DNA of 64,000 nt, taken from an uncultured beta proteobacterium. Lineage in GTDB: Bacteria > Pseudomonadota > Gammaproteobacteria > Burkholderiales > Casimicrobiaceae. Every line of letters begins with the position of its first letter. Positions within the stretch are counted from its first letter, which is position 1. Positions 3,222 through 64,000 of the stretch are shown here, one piece after another. The stretch spans positions 190,611-254,610 of the forward strand of contig CAVOOD010000007.1 of the NCBI GenBank assembly GCA_963697485.1, read 5' to 3'. The translations under genes and the position numbers were made by a program. Under the pieces are notes generated by a model. The model saw nothing but the letters and a program-made list of their open reading frames with translations, was not told where the DNA came from and made no database searches.

Positions 3222-3260
3222 GATGATGCCGAATTCGGTCGTCGCTCGGCACGATGCCCG

Positions 3261-4039: not shown

Positions 4040-4067
4040 GTTGTTCCCTTCTGCAGCCATGTCGAAT

Positions 4068-39629: not shown

Positions 39630-39669
39630 GGCGAGGCACGCCGGACCCGGCGCGCTTCGCCCGATCGTC

Positions 39670-40788
39670 GTGACGCGCTTCGCGACCGGGCTGATCGCGT
39701 GGCAGCGGCGCGCCGGACGCCACGACCTGCCCTGGCAGAACACGCGCGATCCGTATCGCATCTGGCTGTCCGAGATCATGCTGCAGCAGACGCAGGTCGC
39801 GACGGTCATCCCGTATTTCGAGCGCTTCCTCGCGGCGTTTCCCGACGTGGCGAGCGCTCGCCGCCGCGCCGATCGAGCGCGTGCTCGAGCATGTGGAGCG
39901 GCCTGGGCTACTACCGGCGCGCGCATCATGCTGCATCGCGCCGCGCAGGCGATCGTCGCGCGAGCATGGCGGCGTCTTTCCGCGCGATGCGGCGGCGCTC
40001 GCGGCGCTGCCCGGCATCGGCCGCTCGACCGCCGCGGCGATCGCGGCGTTCGCCTTCGGCGCGCGCGGCGCGATTCTCGACGGCAACGTGAAGCGCGTGC
40101 TCGCGCGCCACGCCGGCATCGACGGCGTCGCCTCCGATGCGGCGCGTCGAGCGCGCGCTCTGGGCGCGTGCCGAGGCGCTGCTGCCGGCGCGCGACATCG
40201 AAACCTACACGCAGGCGCTGATGGATCTCGGCGCCACGGTGTGCCTGCGCACCCGGCCGCGCTGCGACGTCTGCCCGGTCGCCGCCGATTGCGTCGCCCG
40301 CCGCGAGCATCGGATCGCCGAGCTCCCGGGCCGGCGCGCAAAAAAAGCGCTGCCGCAGCGCGCGACCACGCGTGCTGCTGCTCGAGCGGCACGGCGAGGT
40401 GCTGCTCGAGCGCCGGCCGAACGTCGGCATCTGGGCGCGGCCTGTGGAGTCTGCCGGAGATCGTCGCGAGGCGCCGACGCGGCGCGCGCATTGCCGCGCG
40501 CGCTTTGCCGCCGACGTCACGCCGCGGCGCCGCGCTGCCGCCGATCGAGCATGGCTTCACCCACTTCCGCCTGACGCTCGAGCCGCTGCCTTGCGCGGTG
40601 CGCCACTGGCCGCGACGCGCGCGAGGAGCCGGGACTGCTGTGGCTGCCGCTGGCGGACGCCGGCGGCGCGGCGCTGCCGGCGCCGATCAAGAAGCTGCTG
40701 CGCTCGCGCGCAGCGACGCTCGCGCTCGGTTGCTCAAGGCTTGGCGTCGCGCAGATCGGCGGGAAGCAAGGCGTCCGCGCGCTCCTGA
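39670..40788 (+). pseudogene. mutY: A/G-specific adenine DNA glycosylase MutY, at least 5 frame breaks; 3' end undefined
   Basis: [62 protein letters not shown], the Fe-S cluster CLRTRPRCDVCPVAADC and the NUDIX-like tail IEHGFTHFRL. No nearby stop exists in any frame after PAPIKKLL. Confidence 0.85.
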
Positions 40789-41696
40789 TATCGCGCGCGG
40801 AACGCGGCGAGCTCCTTGGCCGCGAGATCGTTCCTGCCTTCGGCCTTGAGCCGCCGGATCAACCGGATCCATTCGTCGACCGTCCGCGGCTGCGGCCTCG
40901 TCCATCGCCGCTGCGCTGTCCTGCGCGCGCTTGGCGAGCGCCGGCTGCGCATTCGACGGCGCGGCCTCGCGGCGCGCGGCGAGCGCACCGGCGGCGGCGG
41001 GTGCGGTCTTGCGCTCGTCTTCCGCGAACGGCGCCGGCGCTTGCTGCGCGCTCGCGCCGGCGCTCGATGGCGGCGTCTGCTGCCGCGCTTTCGGACTCGC
41101 CGGCGCGGCGGTCAGGCGATCGTCGGCGGCGGGCGCGGCCGCGTTCGTCGCCGGGCTCGCATCGGATGGCGAAGCCGGGAACGGCACGCCCGGCTTGGCG
41201 GCTTCGCTCGCTGCTGCGGGGCCGCGTTGGCGAGCCGCCTCCGACGCGGTGCCACCCGTTGCCTCGGCTGCGGCCGGCGCATCGGCGCGAATCGGCGGCG
41301 CCGCGCGCTCGACCTTGCGCGGCGCTTCGACGCGACGGGACGGCGTCGGCTGCGGCGACGGCGGCGGGCGCGGCCGCGCGCTGGTCGCGCTCCGTGTCCT
41401 GGCGCGACGGGGGTTCCGCGGGCGGTGTGGCTTGCGGCGCGGCGGGTGCAATCTCCGTCGGCGCGACCTGGTCGGGCGGCGTCATCTCGACGATGCCGAT
41501 CGCGACGACCGCGACGACGGCCGCGGCGGCGACCGGCCACCAGGCGCGCGGCGCATCGCAGACGCTTCGGTCCGGCGCCGACCGCGCGCCGCGCCGCGGC
41601 GGGAATCGCCGCGTCGAGCGCCGGCGGCGGCTGCTCGCGGCTGGCCGCGCGCCACGCCGCGTCGACGTCGGGATCGCGATGCTCGTCGGGATTCAT
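40734..41696 (-). pseudogene. Membrane-anchored anti-sigma factor (Ala/Pro-rich periplasmic region), frame breaks
   Basis: The ATG overlaps the stop of the ECF sigma gene (ATGA). The N-terminus is MNPDEHRDPDVDAAWRAASREQPPPALDAAI, the TM segment WWPVAAAAVVAVVAIGIV lies in another frame, and the C-terminus DEWIRLIRRLKAEGRNDLAAKELAAFRARY is in ORF 40734..40988. Confidence 0.6.
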
Positions 41697-42256
41697 CCGG
41701 TGTCCTCGCGCAGCTGAGGAGACAGGTCGGCGAGCTCGGCGCGCAGTTTGTTCGTCGCGTAGCGCAGGCGGCTCTTGACCGTCTCGACGCCGACGCCGGT
41801 CAGCGCCGCGATTTCTTCGAGCGTCAGTCCGCCCTCCTGCTGCAGCAGAAAGGCGTCGCGCTGCGCAGCCGGAAGCGCGGCCACCGCATCCCTGAGCCGC
41901 GCGCCGAGCTCGCGGTTGAGCGCGCGCGACTCCGGCTCGCTGCGGCGGCTCGCAGGCAGCGCGGCGACGACGTCGGCGTGATTTTCGTCGTCGGTCGAGA
42001 CGAGCGTGACACGACCGCTGGCGCGATGATGGTCGATCAGGCGGTTGTGCGCGAGCGTGTACAGCCAGGTCGTGAATTTGGCGCTGGGCTGGTAGCTCGC
42101 GCGCACGCGGATCAGATTCATCCACACGTCCTGGAAAAGTTGCTCGGCGATGCCGGCGTCGCGGCATTGGCGCAGCAGATAGCGATAGACGCCGCCCTTG
42201 TGCCGCGCATAGAGCGCATCGAATGCCGCGGCATCGCCGGCGGCATAGGCGAGCAT
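41693..42256 (-). CDS. ECF (group IV) sigma-70 family RNA polymerase sigma factor
   Basis: Region 2 is FDALYARHKGGVYRYL..AEQLFQDVWMNL and WLYTLAHNRLIDHHR. Region 4 is LPAAQRDAFLLQQEGGLTLEEIAALTGVGVETVKSRLRYA. The true start may lie slightly upstream. Confidence 0.88.
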   Translation of the reverse strand: MLAYAAGDAAAFDALYARHKGGVYRYLLRQCRDAGIAEQLFQDVWMNLIRVRASYQPSAKFTTWLYTLAHNRLIDHHRASGRVTLVSTDDENHADVVAALPASRRSEPESRALNRELGARLRDAVAALPAAQRDAFLLQQEGGLTLEEIAALTGVGVETVKSRLRYATNKLRAELADLSPQLREDTG

Positions 42257-42443
42257 CAAGTGTTCGTCGCTGGAATCGGCACGCGTCGCGCATCGCGCGG
42301 CCAGTATGCCCGCCGCTTGCGCGCGCAACAACCGCCCGCCATCGCTGGAGGCCGCGCGAGACACGCTGCGCGACTGTCTGCATCCGGCGCGGCCGCCGCC
42401 CGGCCGCCGAACCGCGCGTGCGACGGCCGCGAGACTTCCGAAT

Positions 42444-43273
42444 TCAGTGCGGGTCCGGCGTGAATCGGCCGCGATCGGGAAACGGATCGGGCTGCCAGCG
42501 CGCGACGCGCGGCGCGCCGACCGGCACGCCCTGCGCCAGCAGATTCTGGTACGAGTCGTAGTAGATCGTGATCGTCTGCTCGGGCACCGTGCTGGCGCGC
42601 TCGAACTGGGTGTAGCTCGCGTACGACGATTCGCTGCGGCCATGCCCGGTGCCGAGGCTCGGCTGCGGCGCGGCCTGCCGCTTCGGAATTCAGCGCGCCA
42701 GCGCCGGCGGGCTTGGCGGCCTTGGCCATCGGCTCGGCGGCATCGCGCGCGGCTTCGCGGCGATCCAGCCGTTCCAGCGGCTGCTCGACCACCCGGCGCG
42801 GCCGCTCGCGGAACACGGCGACGCCGATCACGCCGACGTTGTCCGGCCGGCCGGTGCGCGCCGCGTACGAATCGGGCAGCGTCGTGAAGTAGAACGCCGC
42901 GGTGTTCGACATGCTCTTGCGCCATCCGGCGATGTCGGCGCTTTCGTACGGCGAAAGCACGTAGCCGGTCTGCGCCGTCGACGCGGTGTCGCCCGAGATC
43001 GCGTTGACGCCGTCGACGCTCATCACGGTGAGCACCCGCCCGCCGCTCTGGTTGCGCACGCGGATCGCGTATTCGTTGCCCGGCTTGCCGACGACATAGC
43101 GCCGGCCCTGATACATGTAGCTCGGCAGCACGCGGCCTTCGGTGCGGTCGTAGATTTCGACGGCCGCGGGCTCGGCACGGCCAGTGCGCTTCGACGGTGG
43201 CGCAGGCGCCGAGCAAGGTCGCACCGACGGCCGCGGCGACCAGCGTCGCCAGTACGTTTCCGATTCGCTTCAT
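42444..43273 (-). pseudogene. Conserved lipoprotein of unknown function upstream of the ECF sigma gene, at least 3 frame breaks
   Basis: Lipobox LLGAC, then VLPSYMYQGRRYVVGKPGNEYAIRVRNQSGGRVLTVMSVDGVNAISG... The C-terminus GTGHGRSESSYASYTQFERASTVPEQTITIYYDSYQNLLAQGV can be read in another frame and stops at 42444. Confidence 0.6.
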
Positions 43274-43385: not shown

Positions 43386-44516
43386 ATGCCGGATTCGAGC
43401 CATCTTCCTGCACTCGTCGCCTGGCTCGCCTTCGCGCTGGCCTTTGTCTTCGGCGCGGTCGCCAACCGGGTCAACTTCTGCACGATGGGCGCGATCACCG
43501 ACATCGTGCACATCGGCGACTGGCGCCGGATGCGCATGTGGCTGCTCGCGATCGCCGTCGCGATCGCCGGCGCGGCGTCGCTGGAAGCGGCGGGCCTCGT
43601 CGACTTGTCGAAGACGATCTATACGACGCCGCGGATCGCCTGGCTGTCGTACCTGGTCGGCGGATTCCTGTTCGGCTTCGGCATGACCCTTGCTTCGGGT
43701 TGCGGCAGCAAGACGCTGATCCGGCTCGGCGGTGGAAGCCTCAAGTCCCTGATGGTGTTGATCGTGCTGGCGATATCGGCCTACATGACGCTGAAGGGCT
43801 TGTTCGCCGTCTGGCGCGTCAACACGCTGGACCTCGTGCGCTGGGACATCGCCCCGCTGGGCATCGCGCGCTCCGACCTGGGCAGCTTTGCCGACGCGTC
43901 TGGGCGGCGGCGGCGCGGCGATCCGGCTTGGCCGTCGCGCTGGCGATCGCGGCGGCGATCGCGGTATTCGTGTTCGCCAGCCGCGATTTCCGCAGCAGCC
44001 GCGAGCTCGCGATCGGCGGCATCGTCATCGGCGCGGTGATCGTCGGCGGATGGTACGTGTCGGGTCATATCGGCTACGTCGCCGAGGATCCGAGGACGCT
44101 GGAAGAAGCGTTTGTCGCCACCAATTCCGGACGCGCCGAGTCGTTCAGCTTTGTCGCGCCGGCGGCCTATTTGCTGGAACTATTGCTGTTGTGGAGCGAT
44201 CAGTCCAAGCTCGTCACCTTCGGCATTGCCGGCGTGCTCGGCGTGGCGGCGGGATCGGCGGCCATGGCGCTTGCGACGCGGGGCGTTCCGCTGGGAGGGC
44301 TTCGCCTCGACCGAGGACCTTGTCAACCATATCGTCGGCGGAGTGTTAATGGGATTTGGCGGCGTCACGGCGCTCGGATGCACGATCGGCCAGGGGCTGA
44401 CCGGCATTTCGACCCTGGCGCTGGGATCGTTCCTGGCCTTCGGGGCGATCATCGCCGGGTGCGTGGCGGCGTCGAAGTACCAGTATTGGCGGGTGGAAAG
44501 CGTTTCCGCCGCATGA
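43386..44516 (+). pseudogene. YeeE/YedE-family sulfur-compound transport membrane protein, 2 frame breaks (near 43905 and 44290)
   Basis: It has the two characteristic Cys loops FGFGMTLASGCGSK and GFGGVTALGCTIGQG. Three consecutive ORF-track pieces (43386.., 43184..44530 frame, 44112..44516) join into one protein. Confidence 0.8.
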
Positions 44517-45053: not shown

Positions 45054-45129
45054 GGGTCGTTAGCTCAGTTGGTAGAGCAGCGGACTTTTAATCCGTTGGT
45101 CACTGGTTCGAGTCCAGTACGGCCTACCA
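45054..45129 (+). tRNA. tRNA-Lys (anticodon UUU)
   Basis: 76 nt, gggtcgttagctcagttggtagagc..., anticodon loop ct-TTT-aa, T-arm ggttcgagtcc, encoded CCA end. Confidence 0.93.
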
Positions 45130-47991: not shown

Positions 47992-48966
47992 ATGCGACTG
48001 ACCCAGCTTCGTTCCTTCTATGCGGTCGCTCGCCACGGCGGCTTCACTGCGGGGGCCAAGGCGCTGCATATCAGCCAGCCGACGGTCACGACTCAGGTCC
48101 GCGCGCTTGAAGCGAACTATGGCGTCGAGCTTTTCGTGCGCCGTGGACGCAGCGTCATCCTGACCGACGTGGGCCACACTCTATTTACGATGGCGCAGCG
48201 CGTTTTTGCGCAAGAGGAGGAGGCGCTGAATTTTCTTCGCGAGACCGGCGAGTTGCGCACCGGGCGACTGCGAATAGGCGCCGTCGGACCGTTCCATGTG
48301 ATGGAGATGATTTCGGCGTTTCGCCGACGATATCCGAAAGTCGAAGTCTCGATCACGATCGGGAACTCGGAAGAGACGATGCGCGGCCTGCTGGCGTTCG
48401 AGACGGACGTTGCGGTGCTTGCACAGTACGCCAGTGAGCCTCTGTTGCACTCCGTACCCTATAGATCCCATCCTGTCGTGATCTTCGTGCGCAGAGACCA
48501 TCGCCTGGCTGGACGCGAGACCATCCGCATCGAGGAATTGGCCGATGAAGACCTGATCATGCGGGAACCAGGCTCTACGACGCGCAAGGCTTTGGAGGAT
48601 GCACTGCGCGCCGCGGGCGTGAAACCGCGACTTGCAATGGAAATCGGTAGCCGCGAAGCCGTGCGCGAAGCGGTGATCCGCGGGCTGGGCATTTCCGCAG
48701 TGTCGGAATTCGAATTCGTCGCGGATCCATGCCTGCACGCGATCAAAATCACCGGCGCGAAGGTCACGACACATGCCCATGTCGCCTGTTTGCAAGAGCG
48801 ACGGCAGGTACGCATCGTCAACGCGTTCTTTGACGTGATCGACGAAATCTTGAAACGCGGGAGAGATCGGGGGTTGCCGCGCCGGACGTCGGCGGGTACA
48901 ATTCCAGCGAAGGTAGCGCCACGTATTCGAGCGATTTCCGGCAAGCCTTCCATATCGGGTCGTTAG
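47992..48966 (+). CDS. LysR-family transcriptional regulator (divergent from the dehydrogenase-MFS pair)
   Basis: HTH MRLTQLRSFYAVARHGGFTAGAKALHISQPTVTTQVRALE. The last ~25 residues look like read-through, and the stop codon lies inside the tRNA-Lys(CUU) gene. Confidence 0.88.
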   Translation: MRLTQLRSFYAVARHGGFTAGAKALHISQPTVTTQVRALEANYGVELFVRRGRSVILTDVGHTLFTMAQRVFAQEEEALNFLRETGELRTGRLRIGAVGPFHVMEMISAFRRRYPKVEVSITIGNSEETMRGLLAFETDVAVLAQYASEPLLHSVPYRSHPVVIFVRRDHRLAGRETIRIEELADEDLIMREPGSTTRKALEDALRAAGVKPRLAMEIGSREAVREAVIRGLGISAVSEFEFVADPCLHAIKITGAKVTTHAHVACLQERRQVRIVNAFFDVIDEILKRGRDRGLPRRTSAGTIPAKVAPRIRAISGKPSISGR

Positions 48967-49032
48967 CTCAGCTGGTAGAGCAGCGGACTCTTAATCCGTT
49001 GGTCGTAGGTTCGATCCCTACACGGCCTACCA
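48957..49032 (+). tRNA. tRNA-Lys (anticodon CUU)
   Basis: 76 nt, gggtcgttagctcagctggtagagc..., anticodon loop ct-CTT-aa, T-arm ggttcgatccc, encoded CCA. Confidence 0.93.
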
Positions 49033-49123: not shown

Positions 49124-50419
49124 TTGGGAGCAGCGGTGGCGGAAAGCAATCCCCCCAGCCTGTACCGCATAACGACGGACGCCGACAAGGCTTTGCAAGC
49201 GCGCGACTATCACACGGCCGTCCGCCTCTACACGGAGGCGTTAACGCGGACTTCCGTTCAAAGCTACCAGCGCGCTGCCATACTCAGCAATCTGGGTCTT
49301 GCCTGGCAGAACCTCAACCAAGGCGAAAAAGCGACGGCCTGCTTCGAAGACGCTGTCGCGGCGAATCCGAATCTCGCATCGGCACGGATTAGCCTGGGGA
49401 ACACCTATGCGCTGCGCGGGTTGCATGCGGAAGCGCTGCAGCAGTATGACCGAGCCCTGGTACTCGATCCTGCGAGCGCCGTCACTCATACCAACCGGGC
49501 GCTGAGCCTGGAGGCCCTGGGGCGGATCGAGGAAGCCTGGAAGGAATCGGAATGGCGCTACTCTCTTCCCACGGCAACATCGTTCTATCCCCATCGCTAC
49601 GCGAAGCCCAGGTGGAAGGGTGAGCCGTTACGCGGCCAGACTCTCCTTGTGCATCGGGAGCAGGGCCTGGGCGACGTCATTCAATATCTTCGCTTTCTGC
49701 CGCTCCTCGAGCGCTTCGATGCATCGGTCAAATTCGAGTGTCCGCAGCCGCTTGTGCAGCTGATCTCGCCAACGCTCCGACTCGAAGTGATTCCGGCAGA
49801 AGCGCGGCCGGTTCCGGAAGACCTTTTCGATTGTTACATCCCTTTGCTCAGCTTGCCGCATGCGCTCAAATTCAGCGCCATAGACCTTCCGAAGACTTGT
49901 CCCTACTTGTCACGCAGGCTGACAGGAGAAGCGAAACAGTCCCCCGAGCGGGAAACTTTGAAGATCGGCTTCGTCTGGTCCGGCAGCGCGTTCAATCGAA
50001 CGCGCAACGCGGAGCTCTCGGATTTCCTGCCTCTGGTCCGTTTGAATGCGGCGCTCGTTTCTCTGCAAAAGGAAGTCAGTGATCCGGAACGCCGCCAGAT
50101 GTTGGTACACGGCATCGAGAACCCTGGCGTTGCGTTTCGAAACTTTGGCGACACACGCGATGCGATCGTGGCGCTGGACGTCGTCGTCGCGGTCGATACG
50201 GCAGTCGCTCACCTGGCGGGAGCCTTGGGAAAGCGCACGTGGCTGCTTCTGAATGAACCTGCGGCCGTTCGATGGATGATGAATCGCGCCGACAGTCCAT
50301 GGTATCCGACGATGCGCATCCGCCGCAGGCGGGAGAGTCAATCGTGGGCGGACATGATCACCGGCGTGGCGAGCGAGATCGAGAAAGAGACGGCGCTCGC
50401 GTCTCCGCCCCGTGATTAG
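49124..50419 (+). CDS. TPR-repeat protein fused to a glycosyltransferase family 9 (heptosyltransferase)-like domain
   Basis: N-terminal TPRs (AILSNLGLAWQNLNQGEKA..., LGNTYALRGLHAEAL...). The C-terminal part has REQGLGDVIQYLRFLP and VDTAVAHLAGALGKRTWLLL, typical of GT9-like domains. GC content is visibly lower than in the flanks. Confidence 0.7.
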   Translation: MGAAVAESNPPSLYRITTDADKALQARDYHTAVRLYTEALTRTSVQSYQRAAILSNLGLAWQNLNQGEKATACFEDAVAANPNLASARISLGNTYALRGLHAEALQQYDRALVLDPASAVTHTNRALSLEALGRIEEAWKESEWRYSLPTATSFYPHRYAKPRWKGEPLRGQTLLVHREQGLGDVIQYLRFLPLLERFDASVKFECPQPLVQLISPTLRLEVIPAEARPVPEDLFDCYIPLLSLPHALKFSAIDLPKTCPYLSRRLTGEAKQSPERETLKIGFVWSGSAFNRTRNAELSDFLPLVRLNAALVSLQKEVSDPERRQMLVHGIENPGVAFRNFGDTRDAIVALDVVVAVDTAVAHLAGALGKRTWLLLNEPAAVRWMMNRADSPWYPTMRIRRRRESQSWADMITGVASEIEKETALASPPRD

Positions 50420-50680: not shown

Positions 50681-52297
50681 ATGACAGGGCTAAAGCGATT
50701 GGGCGGGGTTACATTTCATCACGCGGGGGCGTTCTGGTTCGGCGTGGTGGCGGTGACGGCCGGCGTCGTTGCGCATATCCCGATGTACCTGATGGGCGAG
50801 AACATCGGGTACCGCCTGGTCGGCATGCCGATGGACATGCCGATGATCATCGGCATGGTCGCGATCGTCGTCGGCCTGATCGTCGAGCTTGTACGGGCTC
50901 TATCCGCGCTCGGCAGAGGATACGGCGCGCGCCGTATCCCGCATCCGCGTCAGCGCTCTCGACGACGCGCCGCTCAACCTGACTCACGTCGGGCTGCTAC
51001 TTGCGATGGCGCTGGCCGTCATCATCGACATCATGAAGCCGACGGCGCTTGCGTTCGTGATGCCGGGCATGTCTATGGAATACGGATTGAAGTCGCCGCT
51101 CAATCCCGGCGGCAGCATTCCGGTGGCGTATGTCGCGCTCTCGGGAATCACGGGCACCGTTCTTGGGTCATTCCTCTGGGGCTGGTTGGGGGACCGGATC
51201 GGGCGGCGCGCTTCGATCCTGTACGCCGGCATCGCTTTCATTGCCACGTCGATCTGCGGCGCGATGCCCGACTTCTCCTGGAATTTGGTGATGTGCTTCA
51301 TGATGGGGTTGGCCGTCGGCGGCATGCTGCCGATCTGCTACGCGCTGCTTGCCGAAGCGATTCCCGCGCGTCACCGGGGCTGGCTGATGATACTGATCGG
51401 CGCCGACATCGCTGGCGGCTACATCATTACCAGCTGGCTTGCCGCGTCACTGGTGCCGACGTACAGCTGGCGGATTCTGTGGCTCATCGGCATGCCGACG
51501 GGCGTGGTATTCATCCTGCTCAACCGCTGGATTCCCGAGTCGCCGCGGTTTCTGCTCGCCGTCGGGCGCGAGGACGAGGCGCGGGCCGTGATGGCGCGCT
51601 ACGGCGCCCGCGTCGTCGAGGGCAGCGCAGTCCGAGACGGCGGTCGAAGCCAAGGTCCACAGTCGCTGGAGCGAGCTGATCAGCCCCGGATTCCTGCGGC
51701 CGACGCTCGTCGTCGGTTGTCTTGCGCTGGGCTCGGGTCTGGTCTTGTTCGGCTTCAACCTGTGGATTCCGACCAACCTGCGCAAGCTGGGCTTTACCGA
51801 GGCCGACTCGATTCTGCGCAACGCGGCGCTGATCGGCTTTCCGCTGACATTTCGTCGTCGCGTGGATGTACGGTTTCTGGAGCAGCCGAAACACGATCAT
51901 CGTCCTGTCGTCATTGACGGCCGCGTCGCTTTTCGGCTTTGTCGTTGCCGGAGACGCCGTCGTGCAGCATCGCTGGCTGCTTTATGTGCTGCTCGTGGTG
52001 CCGATCTGGGGAATCAGCTCGGTCGTCGCGGTGTTGTCGGTCTACAGCTCGGAGATCTATCCGACGCGCATCCGATCGCACGGGACGGGGTTTGCCGCCG
52101 GCGCGAGCAAGGCGGGCGGCGTCGCGATCATCGCGCTGGTGGTCTTCGGAATCGCTGCGCCATCGATCTCGACGGTCGCCCTCATGGGAGCCATCCCGAT
52201 GGCGCTCGCCGTGCTGCTCGCGGTGCGTTACGGCGTGGAGACGCGCAGGCGCAGTCTGGAAGAGATCACTGCGGAAGAGCTTGCGCGCGCGGGCTGA
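50681..52297 (+). pseudogene. MFS transporter, about 3 frame breaks (near 50885, 51640, 51855)
   Basis: WGWLGDRIGRR, GGMLPICYALLAEAIPARHRGW, WRILWLIGMPTG, PESPRFL and SSEIYPTRIRSHGTGFAAGASKAGG are spread over four ORF-track pieces. Confidence 0.8.
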
Positions 52298-53271
52298 TCA
52301 CCTTCTCGCCAAGCGCGCCGGGATCGGCCGCGGGCAGCCGGCAATAATGCTGAAGATGCTGCCAGGAAACATTCCACGAATATCTGCGCCACTCGTCGCG
52401 CAGGAAGTTCGCGTACTGCTCGACGAGCGAGTCGACGCGCTCATCGTGGGTCGACTGCGGCCCGAGGACCTGAAAGGGTGCTCCGAACTCCATGACGAAC
52501 GACCCGCGCGGCGTAAATCGATAGGCGAGCAGGCACGACGTGAGCGCCAGTCTTGAGCGCGAGCTCGGCGAACCCGATGGCGAGTCGGCGCCGGCGCCCG
52601 AAGAACTCCACCGAACGCGAATTGTCGAGGTTCTGGCGGGCATCGGGCAGGTTGAAGACCAGGCCGCCTCGGCTGAGCCGCTGCTTGGCTGCGTGCATCT
52701 GCCGCGCGAGCTCGAAACGCTTCGTGGCCGGCGTCGCGAAACCCCTCTGCTCGAGCTGATCGTTGGTGAGGCCGAGCTCGAGGCCGTCGTGTCCGCGATG
52801 GCGGAGGTACGGTTGGAACAGGCGGCAGAACTGGCCGTGGACCGGCACGACGATGAGCCCCGCTCCGTCTTGCCGGCCTCGATCGAAGTGTTCCCACCCG
52901 ATGACGCGTGTCAGTCGCGCTACCAGCTCGGGCGGCCCGTTCGACAGACTCTGGAACCATCCGGCGAACCAGAGCCGGCCCAGCAGGCTCAGGCCGACGA
53001 ATTGGCGCCGCTCGGCGAGTGGCAAGCCGAACAGCGTCGCGAAACGATGAAGGAGATCGGCGTCTGCGGGCCAAACGTCCCTCTGCACCGGCGTCTGGCT
53101 ACAAAGGAACTTCAGCCAGCGCGCCTCCATGCGATGCGCGTTCTCGTCGCCTGCGCCGCGCCTCACGGCCTCGTCGACGAGCCGCTTGGCGCGGTCGAAC
53201 CGCTGCCGATTGAGCTCGGAGCTGAGATTCCGCCTGAGGTGACGCTCGATCGGTCTGATGAGGTAAATCAC
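52266..53271 (-). pseudogene. LpxL/HtrB-family (lipid A biosynthesis-type) acyltransferase, frame break near 52535
   Basis: Overall similarity to the Lip_A_acyltrans family (GLIVVPVHGQF... region, LSRGGLVFNLPD, AIGFAELALKTGAHVVPA). The C-terminus continues in ORF 52266..52643. The family assignment was made by eye. Confidence 0.55.
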
Positions 53272-53293
53272 GAGCGATTCATTCCGATCGGCG

Positions 53294-54622
53294 TTACTTG
53301 AGCGGAATGTCGAGCGGGCGTACGCGCTCGGTCGCCGCCCGATGCGCCGCGGGACTGTCGGCCATCGAGTCGAAGTTGCCGGAGCGATCGGTCAGCAAGG
53401 ACGCGGCGTACATCAGTGCCTGCGCCTGGGTGCTGCTGAATCCCATCGCCTCGCGAGCTTTCGCATGCCCGGCGTCGCTCGCCTGGTAGTAGGGCAGCGC
53501 GAGCGATCGGCTGAGCTCCAACCTAGCCTGCACCTGCGACGAGAAGATGGATCGATGCTCGTCGCGCCTGGCGCGCTGGCGAAAACACCGGTCGATCGTG
53601 TGTGCCGCCGCGTAGGCCGAGTACATGCCGAATACGACGCCCACCGAGAAGATAGGGTCGACGAAGCCCGCCGCGTCGCCGAGCAGGAAGAATCCCGGCC
53701 CGGCAACCCGGTTGGACCGGTACGAGTAGTTCCGTACGAGCCGCACCGACCCTTCGCAGAACGTCGCGTCGGCCAGCAGCCGCTGCAGCAGCGGCAACGC
53801 GCGGCATTGCCTCAAAAACCAGGCCTCCCACGACTCGCCGCTTGCTTTGCTTTCGCTCGCCCACGCCTTGGGGATGACGAGGCCGATGCTCGTCGACTCC
53901 CGCAGCATGATGTGCCAGAGCCAGGCCCATCCGTCGCCCTGCGGCAGCGCGCTGACGTACGTTGTCGGCGGCACTTCGCGCACCGACTGCGCCGGATAGA
54001 TCTGGCCGTCGGCCGCCAGATAGCTCGAGTTCGCGAAATAGCCCCACACGCTCATGAAGCGGAAGCCCTCGTCGAAAACGCGCAGTCCCAACTGCCTGCC
54101 GAGGACGCCGGTCTGCCCGCTGGCATCGACGACGTACCGGCAGCGAATCCGCGACGCGCTGCTCTCGCCGACCGGCCGATAGCTGACCGAGACTTCGCTC
54201 TCGTCGTCCTCCGCCCGCGAGAGATCCGCCCCCAGGACCGCGATCTCCTCGCCGACCCAGGCGCCGGACGCGCGCGCCCGCTCGAACAGAATCTGATCGA
54301 AGCGGTCGCGCTCGACATGCAGCGCGGGCCGCGTGTATCCGAAGTCGCCGAACGAAAGGCGGCGCATCTCGCCGTTCCAGTCGACGCTGCCCCCGGCCTT
54401 CCGCAGGAAACCTTCACCGGCGATCGCGTCGCTCACCCCGGCGGCGTCGCAGTACTTCCAGACATCGGGCAGCAGGCTCTCCCCCACTTGATACCGAGGG
54501 TGCTTCTGCCGCTCGAACAAGGCAACGGAGTAGCCCTTGTCGGTCAGGTAGGTCGCAGCGAGACTGCCCGCCGGCCCGCCGCCGATCACCACCACGTCGC
54601 ACGATTCGGGAACCGTGCTCAC
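53294..54622 (-). CDS. FAD-dependent halogenase-like oxidoreductase
   Basis: Rossmann VVVIGGGPAGSLAA; a WxWxI-type motif GWAWLWHIM; FVDPIFSVGV matching the halogenase Fx.Px.Sx.G motif. The GTG start overlaps the carrier-protein stop (GTGA). Confidence 0.65.
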   Translation of the reverse strand: MSTVPESCDVVVIGGGPAGSLAATYLTDKGYSVALFERQKHPRYQVGESLLPDVWKYCDAAGVSDAIAGEGFLRKAGGSVDWNGEMRRLSFGDFGYTRPALHVERDRFDQILFERARASGAWVGEEIAVLGADLSRAEDDESEVSVSYRPVGESSASRIRCRYVVDASGQTGVLGRQLGLRVFDEGFRFMSVWGYFANSSYLAADGQIYPAQSVREVPPTTYVSALPQGDGWAWLWHIMLRESTSIGLVIPKAWASESKASGESWEAWFLRQCRALPLLQRLLADATFCEGSVRLVRNYSYRSNRVAGPGFFLLGDAAGFVDPIFSVGVVFGMYSAYAAAHTIDRCFRQRARRDEHRSIFSSQVQARLELSRSLALPYYQASDAGHAKAREAMGFSSTQAQALMYAASLLTDRSGNFDSMADSPAAHRAATERVRPLDIPLK

Positions 54623-54882
54623 GGGGGGAGTTTCTTCACGATCAGATTCCTGACCGCCCGCAGCGTCTGGAAATTTTCGATGAGGACTTCGTCGGGCTCG
54701 ATCGAAACCGCGAACTTCTCTTCGACGAACGCGATGAGCTTGAAGATGCCCAGCGAATCGACCAAGCCTTCGGCGATGATGTCGGTATCCGGCGCGACGA
54801 CGATCGCGCCTTCCCGCCCCGCTTCTTCCTGTGTGAAGAACCGTGCGAGCGTGTCGAAGATTTGCTGGTCGGTATAGATCAT
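54619..54882 (-). CDS. Acyl/peptidyl carrier protein, DltC-like
   Basis: 87 aa. EGLVDSLGIFKLIAFVEEKF contains the phosphopantetheine-Ser motif in a DltC-like context. The ATG overlaps the upstream stop (ATGA). Confidence 0.8.
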   Translation of the reverse strand: MIYTDQQIFDTLARFFTQEEAGREGAIVVAPDTDIIAEGLVDSLGIFKLIAFVEEKFAVSIEPDEVLIENFQTLRAVRNLIVKKLPP

Positions 54883-55863
54883 GGCGCTTTGAAGATCTCC
54901 GTGTTGGGGATGGCAGGCGGCGAACTCGTACCACTCTCCAACGCCGGATTCGAGGTACGCGAGCTGCGTTCCGGCGAGAGGGCCGGAGATCGCTTCGCCC
55001 ATTTCGTTCCACACCGACCCGGTCTGTTCGTCGTACACCCCGCGCGCTTCGGAGTAGCCGAACACCAGGATGCGATCGCCGACCCGGCGATGAAAGGCCA
55101 GCGCCTGCAAGGTCCCGGGCCGGCAGCGCAGGACGATCTCCGCACCGCCGAGCGAGTCGTTCAGGACCGGCCCGATCCGCGCCAACGCCTGCAGCGGATA
55201 CGCCCGGGCCTTCGCTCGCGTTCTCGACGCCGAGGACGAGCGTGTTGTGCGGGAGTCGCTCGTCGAGGGGCCTGACGAGCGTGGCGAGAAACCCAGGCGA
55301 GATGCCGGGCGAACCGGGTGAAAGTGGCTCCCGCGCCCCTCGCGCAACGCCTGCTCGGCGTACAGAACCATTGTCGTCGGATGCATCGCGAGCCACTCGC
55401 TCCACAGACACTGCGAGAGCGGGAGGCGCTTGAGGGCCGCCCCTCGCATCGCGCCGGCCAGCGCAACGCCGGTGAACGGCGACCAAAGGCTATCGGTCGA
55501 GCTGGTCTTCCAGGAGCATCGTGCCGTTGTACTGCCCTCGCAGACGAAAGAGCGAGACGCTGCCCTTCGACCTCCGCCCGAAAGGCCGACGCGCTGCTGC
55601 ACATCGCGCAGAGCGTCACGACCACGGGCCGATCGTCGAAGGCGAGGTTCGCGACGTGAGGGTGCTCTCATGATCCACCACGGCAGCGCCCAGGCGCGGC
55701 GGCCCAGATAGAGCCCGAGGACCGGGTCGTCGTCGCGAAGGTGGTCGTACACGTCGGTCCAGACCGGGTCGTTCAGCGGCTGAGGCGCCCTTGTCGCGAG
55801 TTCTTTCGCTTCAAACAGGTGCGCTTGCGGCAGTTCGCAGTGGGTGTCGACGGTTTCAACCAT
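54879..55863 (-). pseudogene. DUF3179-domain protein, at least 4 frame breaks
   Basis: PVLGLYLGRRAWALPWWIM, VVTLCAMCSSASAF (other frame), DSLWSPFTGVALAGAMRGAALKRLP, WSEWLAMHPTTMVL and the C-terminus HP-NTEIFKAP stop (an extra c in a cccc run). Confidence 0.65.
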
Positions 55864-57425
55864 GGGGAAGCTCCTCGTGCAGCCGCAGTCGGTCGACTTT
55901 GCCGGTGCTGCCGCGCGGAAGCGACCCGCGCACCGCGATCGACAGCGGAATCATATACGCAGGGAGACGTTCGGCGCAAAACGCACGAAGCTTGCCGGCA
56001 TCCAACGCGCGCCCGGCCTTGGCGACCGCCGCGGCGCGTATCACGTGGCCGCTCTCCTCGTCGGGTATGGCGATGGCTGCCGCCTCCGCTACGTCCGGAT
56101 GCTGGTGCAAAACACTTTCGATTTCACCAAGCTCGATGCGGTAGCCGCGGCTTTTTACCATTCCGTCCCGGCGGCCGAGAAGATGAAGCAGCCCGGCGCC
56201 ATCCTCGCGCACGAGGTCTCCGGTCCGATACCAGAGGGCGCCCTCGCTCCGTTCGCCGCGAGAGACGAGGGCATGTGCGGTGGCGTCGGGCATCGCCTGG
56301 TAGCCGGTCATCACGCTCGGGCCGCTGACGTAGAGCTCGCCCGTTTCGCCTGGCTCGCACACCGACCCCGCGTCGTTCACGACGAGCAGCTTGCTGTTCG
56401 CGCACGCTGTGCCGATCGGCACGGGCGCTGTCTGCTCTGGCGGCAGCGCGTCGACTGCGTAGGCGGTGCAGACGTTGGTCTCGGTCGGCCCGTACCAGTT
56501 CCAGTAGCGCGCGCCGGGGATTTGCTCGCGCAGGCGGCGCAGATGCGCGACCGGGAAGACTTCGCCGGCGAAAATGATCTGGCGCAGCTGCGACCAGTCG
56601 TGGCGCTCGAGTCCGCCCGAGAGCGCGAGTCGCGCGAGCAGCGAAGGTACCGAGTACCAGACGGTGATCCGCTGCGCTGCGATCCAGTCCGCGAGATTGC
56701 GTGGGAAGACGTTGAGGCCCGGCGGCACCAGTGCAACGCAGGCGCCCGCCTTGCAACTCGCGAAGAGGTCGAACACCGACAGATCGAAGTGCAGCGGTGC
56801 GTGGCTCGACACGACGTCGGTCGGGGCGAGCGCTGTGGCCTCGGCCGCCCAATCGACGAACGAGAGCGCGGCGCGATGGCTGAGCACGACACCTTTTGGC
56901 TGTCCGGTCGAGCCCGACGTGTAGAGGATGTACGCCGTGCACGAAGGATCGCGCTCTTCCCGACCGGCGCTCTTGTCCGGCACCGGAACACGCGAGGGGT
57001 TCGCCCTTTCGAAGCCAAACTCCACGTCGACCGGCCGCGGCGCCGCGCGAGCGATGCCGACGAAGGCCGGCGCGGACGCGAGCGCGGGAGCGAGCAGCGG
57101 CCACCACTTCGGCGTGGAGAAGATACCGCAAAGGTCGCCGTTCTCGACGATACGCGCGACTCGCTTGACAGGCGACGCGACGTCGAGCGGCACGTACGCG
57201 GCCCCGGCCCGGAGCACGCCCCACATGGCGACGATCGCGTGGAGCGACTTGTCCAGGTAGAGTCCGACGCGATTTCCGGGCCCCGCGCCTTGTGCGACGA
57301 GCTCGATCGGCGAGGCGGGCGGAGGACTCGTCCAGCTCGCGATAGCTGATCGACTTCGCCCCGTCGACGACCGCCGTCCGGTCCGGATACCTGGCCGCGC
57401 TTTGGATCAGCAGATCGTCGAGCAT
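55856..57425 (-). pseudogene. Stand-alone amino-acid adenylation (AMP-binding) enzyme, DltA/NRPS A-domain-like, one frame break near 57305
   Basis: A-domain core motifs are present: LYTSGSTGQPKGV, FDLSVFDLF, NWYGPTETNV, YRTGDLV, GRRDGMVKSRGYRIELGEIE and PRGSTGKVDR. Confidence 0.85.
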
Positions 57426-57743: not shown

Positions 57744-58775
57744 ATGCGGTACCTGATAATCGCGCTTGCGATCCTCCTTGCCTCCGCGCTTCCTGCTCGC
57801 GCGCAGTTCAGCATCGATTTCAACGCCCCGGGCGTCAGTATCGGTGTCAACATGCCCGTGTATCCGCAGCTCGTTCTCATACCGGGCTACCCGGTCTATT
57901 ACGACCCCCAGGTGAATTCGAACTACTTCTTCTACGACGGCCTTTACTGGGTCTACTGGGGAGACAACTGGTACACGAGCGAGTGGTACAACGGCCCATG
58001 GCAGCTGGTCGCGCCTGAGTATGTGCCCCAGTTCCTGCTGCTCGTTCCCGTGCGCTACTACCGTTCTCCGCCGAGTTATTTCCTAAGCTGGGGTCGCGAT
58101 GCGCCGCCGCACTGGGGTGAACATTGGGGCGGCAGTTGGTCACAGCGTCGCGCCGGATGGGACAGGTGGGATCGGCGGTCGGTCGCCGCCGCGCCTCTGC
58201 CGGTTTACCAACGGCAATATTCCGGCAGTCGCTATCCTCGCGCCGCCGAGCAGCAGCAAGTGATTCGCACGCAGAATTATCGTTATCAGCCACGCGATGC
58301 CGAAGTGACCCAACACTTCCGGCAGCGAGCCGTCCAAGGGCAGCCACGAGGGCAGCAGCAGGTCCAACAACAGAATCAGCAACAGCTCCAGCCACAGGGC
58401 AATGCCGCCCGCGCCCGCGTGCAGACGCAACAGCCTGTGCAGCAGGGCGCGGCGCCGCAGGTTGAACAACTGAAGATGAATCGACAGCGTCAGCAGCAAC
58501 AGGTGCAGCAACAGCAACAGGTTCAGCAGCAACAGCAACAGGGGCGTCAAAACGGTCCGCAGGAAAAGGCGCGCGTCAATGCAGGCCCGCCGCAGGCCCA
58601 GGGTCCCGCGCCCAGGGGCGCGCCCAGGGAAACGAAGGCCGCTGCGCAAGGTCCGGGGCCGCAGGGCGGGGGCAGGGCAGGACCGCAGGAAGCCAAGGGC
58701 GGATCGCAAGACAAGGGAAACGAGAAAGGGGCGCGGGGCGGACAGGTCAAGGGAGACGAAAAGAAGAAGGAGTGA
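57744..58775 (+). CDS. Secreted protein with a Trp/Tyr-rich N-domain and a Gln-rich, then Gly/Lys-rich, low-complexity tail
   Basis: Signal peptide ending ARA-QF, then YFFYDGLYWVYWGDNWYTSEWYNGPWQLV (reminiscent of YXWGXW-type repeats). Long Q runs follow (QQQVQQQQQVQQQQQQ). Confidence 0.6.
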   Translation: MRYLIIALAILLASALPARAQFSIDFNAPGVSIGVNMPVYPQLVLIPGYPVYYDPQVNSNYFFYDGLYWVYWGDNWYTSEWYNGPWQLVAPEYVPQFLLLVPVRYYRSPPSYFLSWGRDAPPHWGEHWGGSWSQRRAGWDRWDRRSVAAAPLPVYQRQYSGSRYPRAAEQQQVIRTQNYRYQPRDAEVTQHFRQRAVQGQPRGQQQVQQQNQQQLQPQGNAARARVQTQQPVQQGAAPQVEQLKMNRQRQQQQVQQQQQVQQQQQQGRQNGPQEKARVNAGPPQAQGPAPRGAPRETKAAAQGPGPQGGGRAGPQEAKGGSQDKGNEKGARGGQVKGDEKKKE

Positions 58776-60198: not shown

Positions 60199-61264
60199 CT
60201 AGAGCTTGCTCGCGTAGTCCTTCTGCACCTTCTTGATGCGCTCGTGCGAGCCCAGGAACGCGTGCTTCGACATGTCGGCGGAGTACTTGCTCGCCGGCGG
60301 ATGCTTGCCGACCGCTTCGGCCAGCGCGCGGATGTGATGCGGCCCGGCGCCGCAGCACACGCCGAGATAGCGGATGTCCAGGCGCCAGCGCCTCGCGGCC
60401 GAATTCGGCGATCTCGAAGCGATTGCAGGTGAACGGGTCGAGCGCGACCGGGAACGGCCGGCTGACCCTTCGTCGTAGTGCCAGTGCGCATCGCGCAGCG
60501 ACTGGAACGACGGCTCGCGCTCGCTGGTGCGATACGGAACCGGCAGCGCCGCGATGTGCGTCTTGACCGCGGCGCGGATCTCGCGCAGCAGCGGCATCAT
60601 CGTCGCCGGGCCGCGGATGCAGTTGAGGCCGACGACGTCGGCGCCGGCGTCGGCCAGCCGCTTGCACGCGTCGACGACGCTCCAGTTCTCGCGCGTCACG
60701 TCGGCCTGGTGCATCGCCAGCGTGATCACCGCCGTCTGCCCGGCGCGCTTGACCACGTCGAGCGCGATCAGCGCTTCCTGCGCATAGGAGAACGTCTCGC
60801 CGATGATGAAATCGACGCCGGCGTCGACCGCCCAGCCGACCTGCTCCTCGAACATCGCGCGCACCGCCTTGTGCGACGCCGCGTCGGCCGGATCGTAGAC
60901 GTTGGTGTTGCAGATGTCGCCGGCGAAGAGCGCGCCGGTTTCCGCGCGCCACGGTCTTGGCGATCTCGAGCGCGCGCCGGTTGATCGGCTCGAGGTCCTT
61001 CTCGCGGCCGATGATGCGCAGCTTCTCGCGATGCGCGTAGTAGGTGAGCGCTTCGACGACGTCGGATCCGGCGTGCACGAAGTCGCGGTGCAGCTGCGCG
61101 ACGACTTCGGGGTGCTCGAGCACCACCTCGGGGACGAAGGCGCCGGCCTGCAGATAGCCGCGCCGTTCGAGCTCGAACACGTAGCCCTCGGCGCAGATCA
61201 CCGGGCCCTGATCGAGACGTTCCAGCAGCGAGTTCGATGGGCGTTGCGTTGCGGTCGCGGTCAT
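60199..61264 (-). pseudogene. Betaine/homocysteine S-methyltransferase-family enzyme, about 3 frame breaks (near 60945, 60470, 60385)
   Basis: [63 protein letters not shown] and [18 protein letters not shown] (zinc-binding Cys pair). Confidence 0.8.
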
Positions 61265-61520
61265 GGCGTCTGCCTTGGGAGTGGAGCGCGCGACTATCGC
61301 ACCTTTGCCGGCCGCGACCAGTCGCCAGCCGACGCCGATTGTCGCCGGTGCGACATCGGCGGCTCCGACCCGGGCCTGGCGCGTCGCCGCTCGCGCCGGG
61401 GCAGCCGGCGTCCGCACCATGGACCAACCCGGGTCGCATCTGGAACACTTGCGGCCCGGCGCGCCGACTATGCTGGCGGCGAGCGCCCGCGGCACGCGCG
61501 CAAGCGCTCGGAGGATGGCG

Positions 61521-62185
61521 ATGGAAACGCTGGCGTTCATTCTGCACAACCTGCCGGCCATCGGCGAGCGCACGCTCGAGCACGTCTCGATCGTCGGCGT
61601 CGCGGTCGGCCTCGCGATCCTGACCGGCGTGCCGCTCGGCATCGCGATCACGCAGAGCCAGCGCGCCGCCGACACCGTGCTCTACCTCGGCTCGATCGTG
61701 ATGACGATTCCGTCGATCGCGCTGTTCGGCGTGCTGATTCCGCTGCTGTCGATGATCGGCCAGGGCATCGGCTACCTGCCGGCGGTGATCGCCGCGATGC
61801 TCTACGCGCAGCTGCCGATCATCCGCAACACCTACACCGCGATCACGCAACGTCGATCCGGCGCTGCGCTCGGCCGCGCATCGGCATGGGCATGTCGACG
61901 CTCGCAGCGGCTGCTGCGCGTCGAGATTCCGATCGCGCTGCCGGTGATCATGGCCGGCGTGCGCATCGCCGTCGTCATCAACATCGGCGTCACCGCGATC
62001 GCCGCGTACATCGGCGCCGGCGGGCTCGGCACGTTCATCTCGCCGCGGCATCTCGCAGACCGACGTGCGCCAGCTGATCACCGGCGCGCTCGCGCTCAGC
62101 CTGCTCGCGATCGTCGGCCGACTACGCGCTGCTCTGGCTGCAGCGCCGGCTCACGCCGAAGGGCGCCGCGGAGCGCGCGGGTTGA
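61521..62185 (+). pseudogene. Osmoprotectant (glycine betaine/choline-type) ABC transporter permease, frame breaks
   Basis: [11 protein letters not shown]...IPSIALFGVLIPL...GIGYLPAVIAAMLYAQLPIIRNTY, then VEIPIALPVIMAGVRIAVVINIG and LLAIVADYALLWLQRRL in other frames. Confidence 0.8.
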
Positions 62186-63214: not shown

Positions 63215-63960
63215 CCACCGCCACCGTGCCCCAGCGCTCGGCTGCTGCCGTACGCGGTGCTGGCCGGCATCGCGCTGGCGGTCGTCTGGGTGCTGGTCGC
63301 AAGCGGGCTGTGGACCGACATCCTGCGCTACCGCAAGGACATCGTCTATCTGACCAAGCAGCATCTGGTGCTGGTCGCGCATCTCCGGCAGCGCTCGCGA
63401 TCGTCACCGGCGTCGCGCTCGGCATCTGGCTGTCGCGGCCGTGCGATGGCGCGCTATGCGGAAGCGATGATCCAGGCGGTCAACATGGCGACCTCGATCC
63501 CGACGCTCGGCAAGCTCGCGCTGATGATGACGCTTGCTCGGCATCGGCGCGCTGCCCGCGATCGTCGGGCTGTGGATCGCGACGCTGCTGCCGATCGTGC
63601 GCAACACCTACGCCGGCATGCGCGCGGTGCCGGCGCACCTGGTCGACGCGGCGCACGGCATGGGCATGAGCCCGCGGCGCGATCCTGCGCCGGGTCGAGC
63701 TGCCGAACGCGCTGTTCGTGATCTTCGCCGGCATACGCACGGCGATGGCGGTCAACGTCGGCACCGCGCCGATCGCTTTCCTGATCGGCGGCGGCGGGCT
63801 GGGCGAGCTGATCTTCACCGGCATCGACCTGCAGGAATACGGGATGATGCTGGCCGGCGCGATTCCGACCGCGCTGCTCGCGGTAGCCGTGGATTTCCTG
63901 TTCGGGCAGGCGCAGTATTGGCTGGTACCGCGCGGCGTCAATCCGCTGCGGAATTCTTGA
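63211..63960 (+). pseudogene. Second osmoprotectant ABC transporter permease, frame breaks
   Basis: LAGIALAVVWVL..., IPTLAKLALMMT.., GLWIATLLPIVRNTYAGMRAVP, VELPNALFVIFAGIRTAMAVNVGTAPIAFLIGGGGLG. The ATG overlaps the ATPase stop (ATGA). Confidence 0.8.
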
Positions 63961-63981
63961 GAGCAAGTCCGAGGAGGAACG

Positions 63982-64000
63982 ATGAACAAGGCGATAGGGA
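63982..64000 (+). CDS. Start of the next gene, expected from operon layout to be the substrate-binding protein; only 6 codons in the window
   Basis: SD gaggagga followed by ATG AAC AAG GCG ATA GG. The function is inferred only from the permease-ATPase-permease-binding protein order of YehZYXW/OpuC-type operons. Confidence 0.35.

Follow-up and report, generated by a model that had tools for sequence, protein, structure and literature searches.

Five tightly packed genes on the reverse strand of a 64,000-nucleotide stretch of DNA from an uncultured beta proteobacterium of the Casimicrobiaceae (contig CAVOOD010000007.1; the whole stretch is called the window below) are read here as an orphan operon in the style of type II nonribosomal peptide synthetases, the product of which would be a carrier-tethered, proline-derived, and probably halogenated pyrrole-2-carboxyl unit that is released by acyl transfer. 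The genes encode an adenylation enzyme, a DUF3179 protein, a stand-alone peptidyl carrier protein (PCP), a short flavin-dependent halogenase, and an acyltransferase (AT) of the Lip_A_acyltrans family, and a gene for a major facilitator superfamily (MFS) transporter converges on them from the forward strand. We assign this reading a probability of about 0.6; our confidence is higher than this for the loading of proline and the carrier-dependent transfer, and lower for the halogenation of a pyrrole in the genome of the window, which is without a dehydrogenase gene in this region. An earlier reading, made from the letters of the sequence alone (the sequence-only reading), had placed the same six genes, and searches with Pfam hidden Markov models bear out every domain call, with the AMP-binding, PP-binding, Trp_halogenase, Lip_A_acyltrans, and DUF3179 families all being found. 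The motifs that it had singled out (GLVDSLG, GGGPAG, WAWLWHI, and FVDPIFSVG) are all present.

A Predicted Proline Ligase

The adenylation enzyme (55856..57425, reverse strand) matches Pfam AMP-binding (209 bits) and AMP-binding_C over positions 55856-57226, and its N-terminus lies in another frame up to 57425. Its intact ortholog at the related locus L001 aligns in one stretch with PltF (6o6e; 361 bits), which is the best single-domain match in the PDB. When the pocket segment of the ligase in the window is compared directly, it scores 153 bits against PltF, 107 bits against PigI (7thn, co-crystallised with PigG), and 70 bits against DltA. The pocket motifs that can be read (FDLSVFD, WYSVPS, IIFAGE, and NWYGPTETNVC) equal those of PigI at all readable positions of the specificity code and are close to those of PltF; moreover, 33 loci from different phyla share them, with or without a dehydrogenase gene. 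On this strong sequence evidence, the enzyme is predicted to be an L-proline-specific ligase.

The sequence-only reading had described the operon as Dlt-like and its carrier as a D-alanyl carrier protein. The operon does share with DltABCD the combination of a stand-alone adenylation enzyme and a small carrier protein, and the NCBIfam models of DltA give partial matches to the ligase (260-274 bits, against cut-offs of 476-560). However, the ligase pocket is nearer to those of PltF and PigI than to that of DltA, neither an MBOAT protein (DltB) nor a DltD-like protein is encoded among the open reading frames (ORFs) of the operon, and the carrier protein matches DltC with an E-value of only 0.0055. 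The Dlt interpretation is therefore rejected, since the pocket resembles those of the proline ligases and DltB and DltD are missing, and "Dlt-like" is regarded as a tempting mis-annotation that is corrected here.

The Carrier Protein and the Halogenase

The carrier protein (54619..54882, reverse strand; 87 amino acids) is encoded by an intact ORF and exceeds the Pfam PP-binding cut-off by a small margin (21.4 bits against 20.8), with the phosphopantetheine-attachment serine lying within GLVDSLG. Its best matches in the PDB are type II PCPs, namely 2my5 (2e-08) followed by CcbZ, PigG, and PltL. A weak NCBIfam match that would have made it an OlsHI-associated acyl carrier protein was traced to its source (PMC12493201) and was rejected as unrelated. 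Gene neighborhoods were counted in 58 loci with enough flanking sequence, 18 of which form a close, Casimicrobiaceae-type group; the carrier gene lies directly upstream of the halogenase gene in 17 of these close loci and in 34 of the 58 loci overall.

The halogenase (53294..54622, reverse strand; 442 amino acids) is likewise encoded by an intact ORF, and matches Pfam Trp_halogenase (96.9 bits) and FAD_binding_3. It is of the short type without a C-terminal substrate domain, and the substrates of this type of flavin-dependent halogenase are usually carrier-bound. Among solved structures, it is matched by CndH (1.4e-45), CmlS (4.5e-45), and PltA (5.8e-34), and also by RadH, ChlB4, Mpy16, and Bmp2. 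A grouping of this flavoprotein with non-halogenating monooxygenases or geranylgeranyl reductases, which would have overturned the sequence-only reading, was not found: CndH, CmlS, RadH, PltA, Mpy16, and Bmp2 score 99-159 bits, as opposed to 39 bits for a geranylgeranyl-type reductase, and both monooxygenases and geranylgeranyl-type reductases score far lower against the halogenase of the window. Lys75 aligns with the lysine of CndH and CmlS, in keeping with the call of a halogenase. Across 22 orthologs, which come from several phyla, the GGGPAG motif, Lys75, W234-x-W236-H-I238, and F320-x-D-P-x-F-S-x-G328 are invariant. The enzyme belongs to a clade of its own that is approximately 30-35% identical to all solved halogenases, and public records label it only as "FAD-dependent oxidoreductase." Since the known pyrrolyl-carrier halogenases are not its nearest relatives in particular, the assignment of its substrate rests on context; its motifs, its family, and the tight coupling of the PCP and halogenase genes suggest that it acts on a carrier-bound ring.

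An Acyltransferase of the Lipid A Family as the Putative Release Enzyme

The AT (52266..53271, reverse strand) clears the threshold of Pfam PF03279 (30.7 bits, against a cut-off of 22.3), as the sequence-only reading had supposed in calling it a homolog of the lipid A late acyltransferases. An AF2 model built from 17 orthologs, with a predicted local distance difference test (pLDDT) score of 82.6, has the fold of PatA and LpxM according to Foldseek (2.5e-10 and 5.7e-10, respectively; TM 0.5-0.7). His145 and Asp210 are invariant among the orthologs, and on this basis the enzyme is assumed to be catalytically competent. The pair, with its aspartate in the "LPD...VEFFG" block, is taken to be the counterpart of His122-Asp192 in LpxM (PMC6286764). 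The N-terminus of the AT is charged and helical with approximately 110 extra residues, and contains no hydrophobic membrane anchor according to inspection of the sequence and the AF2 model. Thus, the enzyme resembles PatA and LpxM/LpxL in its fold, its Pfam family, and its invariant histidine and aspartate, but differs from them in that it lacks the HX4D/E motif and a visible membrane anchor and carries the N-terminal extension. The donors would also differ: PatA and LpxM/LpxL use fatty acyl-ACP or acyl-CoA, whereas the AT is predicted to take a heteroaromatic acyl group that is bound to a carrier.

An exhaustive profile search found 1122 relatives of the AT, and the domain architectures were counted in the best 150. 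In 54 of these, the AT is fused behind a carrier domain: 47 consist of an adenylation domain, a carrier domain, and the AT (A-T-AT), three have an additional condensation domain (C-A-T-AT), and four comprise only the carrier and the AT (T-AT). The A-T-AT proteins are approximately 950-1040 amino acids long, and in all three kinds of fusion the Lip_A_acyltrans domain is C-terminal, in the usual position of a thioesterase (among relatives P0376-P0509). No description of an A-T-AT or A-T-LPLAT architecture was found in the literature searched. These fusions, a Rosetta-stone pattern, suggest that enzymes of the AT clade take their acyl group from a carrier protein, which would be a function similar to that of AlmG, for which AlmF-glycine is the donor in Vibrio cholerae (PMC4278540). 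The putative likeness to AlmG rests on the family, the fold, and the carrier fusions. In Betaproteobacteria, Sphingomonas, and Chloroflexia, the AT gene is linked to the cassette of ligase, carrier, and halogenase genes even where the AT proteins are only 28-40% identical.

Related Loci and the Prolyl-Carrier Dehydrogenase

The possibility that the genes are neighbors merely by chance is excluded by the related loci, because the ligase, carrier, halogenase, and AT genes occur together in all 18 Casimicrobiaceae-type loci; these loci contain in addition a gene of the acyl-CoA-dehydrogenase family (ACAD) in 10 cases, DUF3179 in seven, and the MFS gene in nine. Over all 58 loci, a carrier gene is found in 44, a ligase gene in 40, a dehydrogenase gene in 28, and an AT gene in 21. 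The relatives of the window carry the label Casimicrobiaceae or uncultured beta proteobacterium, and the operon occurs commonly in soil Betaproteobacteria that are uncultured. At the protein level, the halogenase shares 96% identity with its counterparts in L007 and L048, the adjacent ligase approximately 84%, and the AT only 65-71%. Similarly, constraint within the cluster is strongest on the halogenase gene, with a ratio of nonsynonymous to synonymous substitution rates (dN/dS) of 0.08-0.16, and the AT is the fastest evolving (0.19-0.33). In the loci that lack the ACAD gene and were assembled from Illumina reads, all of the genes are intact with dN/dS values of 0.08-0.33, which are no different from those of a pair that bears it. 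The ligase, carrier, halogenase, and AT genes are under purifying selection.

The fullest variant of the locus, ACAD-ligase-DUF3179-PCP-halogenase-AT-AT, is present on two soil contigs (L086 and L088). The locus of a groundwater betaproteobacterium combines the AT and the cassette with two halogenases and a DUF3179-methyltransferase fusion, and an AT-linked cassette also occurs in Chloroflexia. In two betaproteobacterial loci, genes for TolC-like, ATP-binding cassette (ABC), and HlyD proteins lie directly upstream. A cultured organism, Sphingomonas canadensis FWC47, has the order AT-ACAD-ligase-PCP-halogenase (L059, 5868-16628), followed by genes for a cupin Asp/Arg-hydroxylase-like protein, a sulfotransferase, an AsnB-like (asparagine-synthase-like) enzyme, and a GT8 protein. 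Sulfotransferase genes are found again in the vicinity of the cluster in L002, in L085, and at the P0222 locus, and the sites of the last two are syntenic, lying between an aminotransferase gene and genes for a sulfotransferase, WbsX, and type II secretion.

The ACAD gene was recognized in the neighborhoods of the halogenase orthologs, where it lies immediately upstream of the ligase gene; this arrangement is seen in 10 of the 18 close loci as well as in L002, L086, and L090. Its product matches AnaB, a prolyl-ACP dehydrogenase (1e-126), and 5zw0, which is named L-prolyl-PCP dehydrogenase in the PDB (1e-82). Against NCBIfam, it scores 404 bits with PigA and 388 bits with RedW, and the next ACAD family follows at 273 bits. 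A proline adenyltransferase, a carrier, a dehydrogenase, and a halogenase together make up the canonical pyrrole hook of indanopyrrole, chlorizidine, armeniaspirol, and marinopyrrole (PMC11686505). With the upstream ACAD gene of the relatives, the front end becomes one of a characterized pathway type, that of pyrrole formation in pyoluteorin, prodigiosin, and bmp-style systems. The sequence-only reading had named membership of an already characterized pathway as a possible refutation of its proposal; such a membership applies to the first steps and not to the transfer step or the product.

The Proposed Pathway

In the model that we favor, the pathway starts with the adenylation enzyme, which would activate L-proline and attach it to the 87-amino acid carrier protein, after which an enzyme similar to PigA, RedW, and AnaB would oxidize the prolyl-S-PCP to a pyrrolyl (or pyrrolinyl) thioester. 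In the genome of the window, this second step would be performed by a dehydrogenase acting in trans, or it may be missing. The flavin-dependent halogenase would then halogenate the carrier-bound ring, and the AT would pass the tethered acyl group on to an acceptor that offers a hydroxyl or an amine, for which a lipid or a glycolipid is the most plausible candidate; this fourth step is proposed because of the PatA/LpxM fold, the carrier-AT fusions in relatives, and the precedent of AlmG. Judging from adjacency only, the MFS transporter, or the ABC-HlyD-TolC set in other lineages, may move the product or a substrate. With regard to the acceptor, the fold and the glycan-related neighbors hint at a lipid or glycolipid, while the exporters point toward a molecule that is secreted. 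The scheme of the sequence-only reading, in which an acid is activated, tethered, possibly halogenated, and transferred, is retained in its general form and relieved of its D-alanyl framing.

Several observations weigh against this model. No ACAD gene was detected in the 64-kb window by tblastn with two ACAD orthologs, and approximately half of the close loci do not have one either. A stand-alone copy that could act in trans was not found: a metagenome scan returned two close orthologs only, both located within clusters. A prolyl thioester that has not been oxidized is an implausible substrate for the halogenase; either the ACAD gene is located elsewhere in the genome, or the variants without it make something other than a halopyrrole. 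The halogenase itself ends its WxWxIP motif with methionine instead of proline, and is nearer to CndH and CmlS than to the pyrrolyl-PCP halogenases PltA, Mpy16, and Bmp2. In the AT, the HX4D/E motif of the lipid A acyltransferases is absent, the residue five positions after His145 being arginine or serine, and an arginine appears to occupy the position at which the catalytic Glu200 of PatA would align, as deduced from the offset of a tag in the alignment rather than from a residue number. Finally, the AT also occurs without the cassette, in L085 as DUF3179-DUF3179-AT (2369-5588) and at the P0222 locus by itself. Its donor therefore need not always be the carrier of the operon, and the AT and DUF3179 genes can persist without the ligase, carrier, and halogenase genes.

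Frameshifts in the Window

The sequence-only reading had noted that one frame needed repair; in comparison with intact orthologs, approximately 11 frameshifts were counted, one in the ligase gene (near 57304-57321 by tblastn), six in the DUF3179 gene, one in the AT gene (near 52444-52529), and three in the MFS gene, for which tblastn pieces were obtained in frames +2/+3/+1/+2 (against L001, L007, and L012). Genes outside the operon are also frame-broken relative to Illumina-assembled relatives, at 63611-63998, 61521-62182, 60202-61267, and 43749-44507; one of these flanking genes is homocysteine-methyltransferase-like. The closest public relatives are MFD-labelled metagenome-assembled genomes, which we take to be long-read assemblies, and similar frameshifts are seen in L004. 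Because the flanking genes are affected as well, the frameshifts in the operon look like assembly noise, and they are most likely assembly errors. Nevertheless, the six frameshifts within 985 nucleotides of the DUF3179 gene are denser than those in the other genes and could represent real decay, which would also count against a working pathway in the window.

Alternative Explanations

The most serious alternative, which we consider possible but clearly less probable than the model above, is that the operon modifies the envelope in the manner of AlmEFG or Dlt, with an aminoacyl or pyrrolyl group being esterified onto the cell's own lipid A, lipopolysaccharide, or envelope glycolipid and no product being secreted. 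It overlaps with the favored model and differs from it only in the acceptor and the purpose. The membership of the AT in the Pfam family of the lipid A late acyltransferases and its PatA/LpxM fold are in its favor, as are the absence of scaffold-building genes and the presence of glycan or envelope genes near the locus in several genomes (WbsX, TPR-GT41, a weak GT9-like match, sulfotransferases, and GT8). However, the AT is devoid of an N-terminal membrane anchor on inspection and of the HX4D/E motif, the TolC-ABC-HlyD genes upstream in two lineages and the MFS gene in many fit the export of a small molecule, and the locus is patchy and varies greatly from one close relative to another. A different kind of objection concerns the flavoprotein, which might be a carrier-dependent oxygenase, or might act on the acceptor or on the final product, so that the group transferred would be prolyl or hydroxylated prolyl. 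Such a pathway would explain why the dehydrogenase is dispensable, and is consistent with the retention of the flavoprotein under strong constraint (dN/dS 0.08-0.16) in the half of the close loci that lack the ACAD gene, with the imperfect, methionine-ended WxWxIP motif, and with the fact that the pyrrolyl-PCP halogenases are not its nearest relatives. We regard it as unlikely, since the lysine and the GxGxxG, W-x-W-x-I, and F-x-x-P-x-x-S-x-G motifs are invariant, the strong PDB and hidden Markov model matches are all to halogenases, and the same clade is found in ACAD-ligase-PCP-halogenase cassettes across phyla.

It might also be argued that the copy in the window is a decaying, non-functional remnant that has lost its dehydrogenase and makes nothing. 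The 6.8 kb contain approximately 11 frameshifts, with DUF3179 accounting for six, and this, together with the missing ACAD gene, gives the argument some force; moreover, relatives can be found at every stage of reduction, including DUF3179 remnants (L006 and L023), an AT alone, and DUF-DUF-AT. On the other hand, the flanking genes are frameshifted at a similar rate relative to Illumina relatives, the orthologous Illumina-assembled clusters without ACAD are intact with dN/dS values of 0.08-0.33, and the halogenase and carrier ORFs of the window are themselves intact; decay of this copy is accordingly as improbable, in our estimation, as a flavoprotein that does not halogenate.

Operon Layout and Accessory Genes

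The tight packing described in the sequence-only reading is confirmed: the ligase and DUF3179 genes share an 8-nucleotide overlap, ATGGTTGA, at 55856-55863, the DUF3179 and carrier genes overlap by ATGA at 54879-54882, and the carrier and halogenase genes overlap by GTGA at 54619-54622. The 22-nucleotide gap between the halogenase and AT genes is read at 53272-53293. The 8-nucleotide and ATGA overlaps are identical in L012, an intact, Illumina-assembled ortholog; in the window's own frame, DUF3179 reads through into the carrier ORF to give a 414-amino acid product, and the ATGA stop appears only after repair of the frame. No ketosynthase, condensation domain, or thioesterase is encoded among the ORFs of the operon or in the gene calls of related loci, as had been claimed; for the thioesterase and condensation genes, the statement holds for those related loci whose gene calls were inspected, no systematic search having been made. 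By contrast, the operon had been said to have a lower GC content, which is not the case (0.669, against 0.663 for the whole window); the GC content falls below that of the window only in the flanks, to 0.62 and 0.615, and in the short carrier gene, to 0.57. Scans for promoters and terminators were uninformative.

The DUF3179 protein (54879..55863, reverse strand) matches its Pfam family with 76.7 bits and aligns over its full length with the intact, 326-amino acid ortholog of L012. His69, Cys85, and Cys88 of its H...CxxC motif are invariant, and the family includes UxxC selenoproteins (PMC9312934); beyond this CxxC/UxxC status, the literature offered nothing on its function. An AF2 model (pLDDT 76.7; model m2b6e0d61e3b8) gave no PDB match below E = 0.03; approximately 100 residues of it weakly resemble a Rieske/NirD-like beta-sandwich, with a probability of up to 0.99 at E > 0.03. 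The model and the conserved residues hint at a metal or redox site. A DUF3179 gene is also found next to the cassette in members of the Cyanobacteria, Deferribacteres, Chloroflexia, and Betaproteobacteria; the CxxC protein, which is cytoplasmic, is an accessory that recurs but can be dispensed with. The idea that it replaces the dehydrogenase was rejected, because L086 has both genes and L007, L017, and L048 have neither.

The convergent MFS transporter (50681..52297, forward strand; Pfam Sugar_tr/MFS_1) has intact orthologs of 537 amino acids, and the 3′ end of its gene overlaps that of the AT gene by approximately 30 nucleotides. It matches the NCBIfam aromatic acid/H+ symporter family with 128 bits, which is below the cut-off, and it adjoins the cluster in nine of the 18 close loci.

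On the other side of the operon, a divergent neighbor at 57744-58775 encodes a secreted, Gln-rich, low-complexity protein without a Pfam match; its gene contains an 18-nucleotide tandem repeat at 58494-58542 and is kept in relatives (L004, 5519-6655). Two tRNA-Lys genes are located at 45054-45129 and 48957-49032 (anticodons UUU and CUU), and the latter borders the variable tract. This CUU copy is 98-100% identical in relatives, in which the surrounding DNA is only 85-90% identical, and the window has an additional TPR/GT9-like ORF (49124-50419) in comparison with L007. The variable halopyrrole locus could be a tRNA-linked hotspot. Farther away, a GC peak of 0.74-0.76 at 39000-43000 coincides with an Ala/Pro-rich ORF (40687-41451), beside which are ORFs that resemble an extracytoplasmic function (ECF)-type sigma factor, MutY, and Tol-Pal/CpoB proteins, as judged from their translations only; the genes at 39000-43000 look like ordinary core genes with no relation to the operon.

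Comparison with Known Systems and Implications

The ligase and carrier of the operon are of the same stand-alone type as those of the pyoluteorin (PltF/PltL/PltE/PltA), Bmp1-4, marinopyrrole, and indanopyrrole systems and of the non-halogenating PigI/PigG/PigA system, and the corresponding dehydrogenase is found in relatives only. With the halogenating members of this group (Plt, Bmp, marinopyrrole, and indanopyrrole), the operon further shares a short flavin-dependent halogenase encoded in the same operon. In contrast to the Plt, Bmp, and Pig cassettes, it contains a Lip_A_acyltrans enzyme in place of a polyketide synthase, thioesterase, or condensation partner, and a recurrent DUF3179 gene in addition, and the dehydrogenase is absent from the window and from about half of the close loci. 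The AlmEFG system, which modifies V. cholerae lipid A with glycine, differs from it: the ligase there is specific for glycine, whereas that of the window is a predicted proline ligase, and the halogenase of the operon (with the dehydrogenase in relatives) would modify the tethered group before its transfer. A conceptually similar end game is that of CloN/CouN of the aminocoumarin pathways, where pyrrolyl-2-carboxyl-S-PCP is esterified onto a sugar hydroxyl; those systems use other types of acyltransferase and are not known to employ one with the PatA/LpxM fold, and their pyrrole is methylated rather than halogenated on the carrier. Nothing relevant was found in the literature on this combination of genes or on halogenase clusters of Casimicrobiaceae. 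The front end of the operon is a known pathway type, and the proposed AlmG-like use of a lipid A-family acyltransferase as the release step is unusual.

It is tempting to speculate further, although we hold the odds to be well below even, that the AT esterifies a halopyrrole-2-carboxyl group onto a membrane lipid or glycolipid, so that abundant, uncultured soil Betaproteobacteria would possess halopyrrole-acylated envelope lipids, and that enzymes with the Lip_A_acyltrans fold, whether free or fused, are a widespread and unrecognized release device of carrier-dependent pathways, of which AlmG is the only studied example. The A-T-AT and C-A-T-AT fusions suggest that the AT fold may serve as a general release mechanism for carrier-bound intermediates. 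Such a mechanism would be of help in genome mining, as tools that seek thioesterase, condensation, or reductase release domains may miss such clusters. The cultured S. canadensis FWC47, which has a related cluster, offers an experimentally tractable relative. If the proposed pathway is correct, the operon would join two toolkits that have not been seen together, namely halopyrrole formation on type II carriers and the lipid A-family acyltransferases, and would point to an unknown halogenated metabolite or lipid from the Casimicrobiaceae, a common uncultured lineage of soil bacteria.

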